Assembly (NCBI RefSeq): GCF_048403405.1
Contig: NZ_CP183129.1
DNA: 64,000 nt
Source of the DNA: Escherichia coli
GTDB lineage: Bacteria > Pseudomonadota > Gammaproteobacteria > Enterobacterales > Enterobacteriaceae
Strand: one strand, 5' to 3'
Shown here piece by piece: positions 37,773 to 37,821 of the stretch (the first letter of the stretch is position 1; each line of letters opens with the position of its first letter). The notes under the pieces are model-generated. The model made no database searches and was not told the origin of the DNA. It saw only the letters and a program-made list of their open reading frames with translations. A program made the translations under genes and the position numbers.

Positions 37773-37781
37773 CGTTTTTTG

Positions 37782-37810
37782 CCGGTAGCTCTGCTACCGG
37801 TATTATTTAC
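37782..37810 (+). terminator. intra-operon stem-loop (partial terminator/attenuator) after pilin gene
   Basis: CCGGTAGCTCTGCTACCGG perfect 7-bp stem followed by TATTATTT, between pilin and chaperone genes. Confidence 0.45.
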
Positions 37811-37821
37811 GGAGTGATTAC

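Follow-up and report, generated by a model that had tools for sequence, protein, structure and literature searches.

A conserved hairpin between the pilin and chaperone genes of an O-island 1 fimbrial operon in Escherichia coli: a candidate leaky terminator and 3′ stabiliser of pilin mRNA

The DNA analysed here, called the window, is a 64-kb stretch of the Escherichia coli chromosome, and the 5.1 kb of it used as a query was 100% identical to strain 4621. Its genes include, in this order, ribF, yaaY, rpsT, espX1, a four-gene fimbrial operon, nhaR, nhaA, mokC and dnaJ. The fimbrial operon, which lies between espX1 and nhaR, consists of genes for a pilin, a chaperone, an usher and an adhesin-like protein, and together with espX1 it forms an AT-rich island with 30–42% GC as compared to 47–54% in the flanks. 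The type III effector gene espX1 (35516–36937; 473 aa, no Pfam match) is directly upstream of the operon and has the same orientation; within the AT-rich island that they share, a 300-bp very AT-rich region separates the two. The features of the operon and of the spacer between its first two genes are as follows.

37239 to 37772, plus strand: major fimbrial subunit (pilin) gene, a 534-nt ORF for 177 aa; Pfam Fimbrial (PF00419), E 6.7e-9; annotated "fimbrial protein", WP_000759929.1
37770 to 37772, plus strand: pilin stop codon TAA, read from the sequence
37780 to 37802, plus strand: RNA hairpin UGCCGGUAGC-UCU-GCUACCGGUA, with eight Watson-Crick pairs plus a G.U and a U-A pair; ΔG −15.6 kcal/mol
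37803 to 37810, plus strand: interrupted U-rich tail UUAUUUAC, with five U in eight positions and A at positions 3 and 7
37811 to 37824, plus strand: Shine-Dalgarno sequence GGAG (37811–37814), a 7-nt spacer and the chaperone GTG, read from the sequence; same start in PGAP
37822 to 38505, plus strand: periplasmic chaperone gene, 227 aa; Pfam PapD_N and PapD_C
38518 to 40968, plus strand: outer-membrane usher gene, 816 aa; Pfam PapC_N, Usher and PapC_C
40981 to 41940, plus strand: fourth gene, 319 aa, for a putative tip adhesin or fimbrial-family protein; an ORF with no Pfam match

An earlier note on this DNA had drawn attention to a stem-loop in a 49-bp pilin-chaperone spacer. The spacer is indeed 49 nt long (37773–37821), with the chaperone GTG at 37822, and the RefSeq/PGAP annotation of the identical strain 4621 places the limits of the pilin and chaperone genes where they are in the window. 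Read as RNA through the chaperone start, it is CGUUUUU-UGCCGGUAGC-UCU-GCUACCGGUA-UUAUUUAC-GGAG-UGAUUAC-GUG. The sequence described in the note, CCGGTAGCTCTGCTACCGG at 37782–37800 and then TATTATTTAC, is present exactly as given; its perfect stem of 7 bp was correct but understated the helix, since the arm from C37782 to C37789 pairs with that from G37793 to G37800 around a UCU loop to give eight Watson-Crick pairs, and G37781.U37801 and U37780-A37802 extend them. RNAfold drew the same 10-pair helix, in which six of the eight Watson-Crick pairs are G-C. The hairpin starts 7 nt past the pilin stop codon. Two other structures considered for this spacer were rejected. A second small hairpin at 37807–37825, which would sequester the chaperone start with the Shine-Dalgarno sequence in its loop, has five weak pairs and is unconserved in relatives, and a minus-strand terminator would consist of the hairpin followed by CAAAAAACG on that strand, without a U-tract.

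By its gene order, its Pfam domains and the identity of its chaperone to Salmonella StcB (61%) and to the proteins of the yehC loci (55–58%), the window operon belongs with the Stc/Yeh-related chaperone-usher clusters, and it is the one found in O157 O-island 1; the homologue search also gave 61% identity of the chaperone to Citrobacter proteins. O-island 1 of O157:H7 EDL933 (z0020–z0025) has been described as a "putative fimbrial cluster" (PMC10877973, PMC9387321), and the window pilin gene is the counterpart of z0024. The ushers of stc and yeh belong to clade gamma-4 (PMC3373541, PMC12778044), an assignment made in those papers. The fourth gene is intact in the window, and its copy in an O157:H7 genome (L002, 5581–6541), which bears the annotation "fimbrial family protein, frameshifted", has its frameshift at about codon 100. 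In O-island 1, z0021 has been published as FmrA, a repressor of motility (PMC9387321, PMC10877973); from the gene order we infer that it is an N-terminal fragment, of about 108 aa, of the adhesin-like fourth gene, and that z0020 is the remainder. The name "Yhl" (Yeh-like) has been given to a pilus whose adhesin, YhlD, has conserved residues W142 and S51 and is represented by crystal structure 8V9V (Sakai, N-terminal 190 aa; PMC12778044). We rejected this name for the window operon, as its fourth protein has no Trp outside the signal peptide, so that W142 is absent, and the O157 copy is frameshifted as noted above. A sequence search with the fourth gene product gave no match in the PDB copy searched, which may lack 8V9V.

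Comparison of window positions 36900–42000 with 5,426 complete E. coli genomes showed that the whole operon is kept in about 1,200 of them. About 3,000 share one deletion of the pilin gene, the chaperone gene and the 5′ part of the usher gene, so that espX1 is left on one side and the 3′ part of the usher gene followed by the fourth gene on the other, and in K-12-like strains merely about 200 bp of the island remains, beside nhaR. Since most E. coli genomes have lost the operon or carry a damaged version of it, selection on it may be relaxed in the species. The hairpin was identical in seven of eight sampled E. coli variants, a level of variation too low for a test of selection. One sampled genome, ETEC1738 (L026), carries a G-to-T change in the 3′ arm at the equivalent of window position 37799 (CCGG to CCTG) that breaks one C-G pair and is uncompensated. 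Position 37817 is often polymorphic (A/G) among E. coli genomes, and strain EC2 (L030) has an IS1 inserted right after the chaperone GTG, at about 37824, just downstream of the hairpin.

Folding of the 71-nt context gave −19.9 kcal/mol, as compared to −13.6 ± 2.7 kcal/mol for dinucleotide shuffles (z −2.33; 2/200), and the spacer alone gave z −3.3 and p ~0.01 relative to its shuffles. Among 200,000 random 49-mers drawn from the dinucleotide composition of the island, a perfect hairpin of at least 8 bp occurred in 0.39% and one of at least 7 bp in 1.5%. The GC fraction of the hairpin is about 0.5–0.6, well above that of the surrounding island (30–42%). The hairpin was also the top terminator-like match between positions 35000 and 43000 and the only substantial one on the plus strand inside the operon.

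A scan of one genome per species gave 23 loci, to which Salmonella enterica stc and two C. koseri loci were added. The resulting survey set comprised 24 distinct pilin-chaperone spacers, among them those of Salmonella stcA-stcB, E. coli and E. albertii yehD-yehC (L008, L013, L016), Citrobacter and Superficieibacter. A GC-rich hairpin was present in all 24, and in every locus with an identifiable upstream pilin gene. The stems were 6–13 bp long, with ΔG from −11.2 to −21.3 kcal/mol (median −15.9), and the GC fraction of the hairpins was 0.46–0.94 as compared to 0.20–0.42 in their flanks. The hairpin started 2–9 nt past the stop codon in 18 spacers and 16–41 nt from it in the other six, which included the three yeh spacers. 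Three contigs in the survey bear unexpected labels, those of Collinsella sp., Bacillota bacterium and Flavobacterium psychrophilum MAGs (L003, L004 and L014); the first two carry the E. coli operon, with a chaperone identity of 97–100%, and the third a Citrobacter-type operon, and they are most likely mis-binned enterobacterial contigs.

The stem sequences varied widely among the relatives (CCGGUAGC, CCGGCAGUA, UCGGCAGCC, CCGGCGGCG, GGCCGCUAU and others). Covariation was assessed on 13 in-register sequences, as a MAFFT alignment of the 17 CCGG-type hairpins misregistered the shorter stems of four (L009, L011, L025, L020); these four had perfect stems of their own in a contiguous-stem search. 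Within the alignment 93% of cells were paired, and seven of the ten pairs showed changes on both sides. There were 21 double-change cells, as compared to 6.6 ± 2.6 in column shuffles, none of 500 of which reached the observed number, although this frequency is not a true probability as the sequences are related. When the partner was moved by one to three columns, pairing fell to 16–67% of cells; this control and the number of covarying pairs agree with the outcome of the shuffles. Because the stem sequences differ but stay complementary, we consider it very probable that the hairpin is an RNA structure maintained by selection.

We also considered whether the element acts as DNA, as a site for a dimeric regulator or as a REP-like or mobile element, or whether it is a chance palindrome without function. 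The hairpin sequence forms a 23-bp palindrome that is nearly perfect, with a CGG/CCG core that does not vary among the 13 relatives, as might be expected for a protein site. However, the arms diverge and yet stay complementary, which is the mark of a strand that pairs with itself rather than of a site that a protein recognises by its sequence. A covariance model of the hairpin found no other copy in the 64-kb window or in the fetched loci beyond weak matches to ordinary terminators, the best of them in the window having E 0.02, and the 120-nt context was single-copy in every E. coli genome that carries it. Chance would give such a hairpin in about 0.4% of cases for the window copy by itself, and each of the 24 relatives has one as well. 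These alternatives are therefore highly unlikely, and the element is an operon-specific RNA (or single-strand) structure, neither a repeat nor a sequence-specific protein site. Rfam gave no gathering-level match at the locus, where the best permissive matches (E at least 0.86) were far below threshold.

The stem, a stable GC-rich helix of 10 pairs, is of the kind found in intrinsic terminators, and in the window copy the sense-strand sequence after it is U-rich, a partial resemblance to canonical examples. Unlike operon-end terminators, it has an interrupted U-tract, is flanked on its 5′ side by U6 with no A-tract upstream, and lies inside an operon close behind a stop codon. A terminator score of the d'Aubenton-Carafa 1990 type, computed with modern energy parameters and used as a relative yardstick only, gave it a borderline +1.5, whereas seven terminators at operon ends elsewhere in the window scored +8 to +49; such a low value is as expected for a leaky site. 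Across the 24 spacers the 8 nt 3′ of the stem had a mean T content of 0.52, as compared to 0.31 in the rest of the spacers, and at least five T in eight followed the stem in 13 of them, including the window copy and Salmonella stcA-stcB (UUUUAUAA). Seven of the 24 had a poor U-tract, with at most three T in eight, two of them (L012 and L014) with AAUAAGGA. Canonical termination therefore cannot be the universally conserved function of the element: the hairpin, not the U-tract, is the constant feature of the family. The element also has the position of a protective hairpin, directly after the pilin gene and before the chaperone, usher and adhesin genes, and the conservation of one, as described above for all 24 spacers and for the double changes in seven of ten pairs. 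That the hairpin is universal and the U-tract variable suggests that 3′ protection is the constant function in the Stc/Yeh-related family.

We propose, with moderate confidence, that the hairpin of the window operon serves both as a leaky terminator and as a 3′ stabiliser and so would raise pilin mRNA over that of the chaperone, usher and other assembly genes. The stem-loop would form where the pilin cistron, the first of four in this chaperone-usher operon, comes to its 3′ end. As a weak intrinsic terminator, made up of the hairpin and the interrupted U-tract, it would cause some RNA polymerases to stop after the pilin gene. Pilin-only transcripts, whether left by this termination or by an endonuclease that cuts in the AU-rich spacer, would be capped by the hairpin and shielded from 3′-to-5′ exonucleases, so that the pilin segment would outlive the chaperone, usher and adhesin segment. 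The chaperone gene starts with GTG, whereas its homologues start with ATG, and this weak start would reduce chaperone output further, through translation. With a borderline tail and score, and with a hairpin 7 nt after the stop codon, any termination would be partial and sensitive to translation. The pilin-only transcripts, the partial termination and the setting of stoichiometry by the hairpin are all steps that we infer. The earlier note had suggested that the stem-loop behind the major subunit gene either terminates transcription in part or stabilises the mRNA, and at the level of sequence this suggestion is supported by the position of the hairpin in 24 of 24 spacers and by the covariation. 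Its accompanying statement that fimbrial operons commonly carry such an element agrees with the literature, in which the arrangement is standard (PMC3373541; PMC5927463, for papBA and cfaAB).

The termination half of the proposal is the weaker half, as the U-tract is interrupted, the score is borderline and the site is 7 nt from the stop codon. A terminator placed at a similarly short distance from a stop codon was almost fully repressed, an effect ascribed to the trailing ribosome or to coupling of ribosome and RNA polymerase (PMC4824070), and 18 of the 24 hairpins lie in the range of 2–9 nt where the tested terminator was nearly inactive. The hairpin might thus serve as a decay barrier only. 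The full operon would then be transcribed, the terminating ribosome would occlude the 5′ arm and the poor U-tract would add to this, so that no useful termination would take place; after cleavage in the AU-rich spacer or in the downstream genes, 3′ exonucleases would stall at the hairpin and leave a stable pilin mRNA, as in the malE-malF and cfaB models. This alternative accounts well for a family in which the hairpin is universal and the U-tract is not; furthermore, 3′ protective structures are documented for operons with a stabilised first gene (PMC5927463), and the 3′ end of K-12 fimA follows a hairpin without a U-run. It accounts less well for the average enrichment of T in the tail, for the presence of at least five T in eight in the window copy, in Salmonella stc and in 11 others, and for a terminator score of the window copy that is not negative. 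Termination and protection are not mutually exclusive, and we regard protection alone as unlikely.

The short distance from stop codon to hairpin, conserved at 2–9 nt in those 18 spacers, could have a function of its own. The hairpin could be an attenuator gated by translation, terminating only when no ribosome is close behind RNA polymerase, so that transcription of the assembly genes would be licensed by translation of pilin and no fixed ratio would result. The measured relation between distance and termination efficiency, with its attribution to ribosome-RNAP coupling (PMC4824070), is consistent with such gating, but short spacers may merely reflect compaction of the operon, and in six relatives, three of them yeh, the hairpin is 16–41 nt from the stop codon; we judge gating of this kind to be quite improbable. 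The same conserved distance, taken together with the invariant CGG/CCG core, also allows a broader reading, in which the hairpin is either a translation-sensing switch or the specific site at which an RNA-binding protein or a nuclease docks, and in either form would couple the assembly machinery to pilin output. As a switch, it would have its 5′ arm melted by a ribosome terminating on the pilin ORF, which would let transcription of the assembly genes proceed only while pilin is translated. This broader reading is improbable in our estimation. If either the switch or the docking site were real, synthesis of the assembly machinery would be coupled to pilin output and the ratio would not be fixed.

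At the other extreme, termination could be complete, with the chaperone, usher and adhesin genes driven by a separate internal promoter located within the spacer or close to it. The hairpin overlaps a promoter-like match at 37779–37806 (TTGCCG, 16 nt and TATTAT), and expression of the distal gene z0021 in O157 would be accounted for by such a promoter. However, promoter-like matches in the AT-rich region numbered 22, as compared to 26.3 ± 5.4 in shuffles, and thus were not in excess; the hexamers are unconserved in relatives; and a marginal score at a site near the stop codon is a poor basis for complete termination. We therefore give this alternative very little credence. Deletion of z0021 (fmrA) in O157 raises motility (PMC9387321; see also PMC10877973), so that distal genes must be expressed there; this is indirect evidence that the stop at the hairpin is not complete and is compatible with the leaky terminator and stabiliser that we favour.

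The hairpin is of a well-known kind, and its placement is the textbook one in fimbrial operons. Stem-loops of the Rho-independent type that follow the subunit gene and give an excess of subunit have been called a general feature of fimbrial gene clusters in work that includes stc in clade gamma-4 (PMC3373541). Protective 3′ structures and differential decay have been described for malE, for cfaAB and for the 3′ end of papA in papBA (PMC5927463), and in K-12, Term-seq detected a strong primary 3′ end just after fimA under two conditions; the supplement with the fimA entry has none for yehD or yehC (PMC7815308). The pap (papA), CFA/I (cfaB) and type 1 (fimA) elements thus share with the window hairpin their place after the major subunit gene and the proposed excess of subunit mRNA, whereas the hairpin sequences are unrelated, and the three known cases are backed by transcript-level evidence and the window hairpin by sequence comparison. 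In pap, stable papA mRNA also depends on upstream processing by RNase E and on a 5′ stem-loop. The REP/BIME of malE-malF is likewise an intercistronic hairpin after the most abundant first cistron, with a proposed role as an exonuclease block (PMC5927463); unlike REP/BIME, the window hairpin is single-copy, 23 nt long and specific to its own operon family.

The closest comparisons are with stcA-stcB and yehD-yehC, homologous operons (chaperone 55–61% identical) with a hairpin in the same spacer; we found no published description of the window, stc or yeh hairpins. That of Salmonella stc is also 7 nt after the stop codon and has the ACCGGCGG core in common with the window hairpin, with a better U-tract, UUUUAUAA, whereas the yeh hairpin is 40–41 nt past the stop codon. 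An mrp-like ATPase gene and a DUF2574 (yehE-like) gene immediately precede both stc and the closest C. koseri operon (L032–L034), which are therefore the counterparts of E. coli yeh by position; the window operon, a paralogue, is at a different site, between rpsT and nhaR and beside espX1.

The covariation provides comparative evidence that the post-pilin hairpin is a selected RNA element across the Stc/Yeh-related fimbrial family, and the constancy of the hairpin rather than of the U-tract bears on the old question of termination versus stabilisation. When O-island 1, stc or yeh fimbriae are placed under a heterologous promoter, the hairpin should be kept or deliberately removed, as it is likely to hold down expression of the chaperone, usher and adhesin genes and, in O157, of fmrA. 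The practical value is modest, and current understanding of fimbrial gene regulation is unchanged.

Other structured elements were present in the region. The whole 6.9-kb island contains just four perfect 8-bp hairpins, and two of these, in addition to the spacer hairpin, lie inside the pilin ORF, at 37377–37399 and 37525–37545, with arms TCGACAAC...GTTGTCGA and TAGCATCA...TGATGCTA; they may be due to chance or may represent internal mRNA structure. Elsewhere in the window, Rfam gave gathering-level matches to the ES003 sRNA (26281–26333), sok of hokC/mokC (44545–44697), tpke11 (46082–46159), STnc490 (55636–55759) and the thr operon leader (60538–60657), as expected for this chromosomal region.
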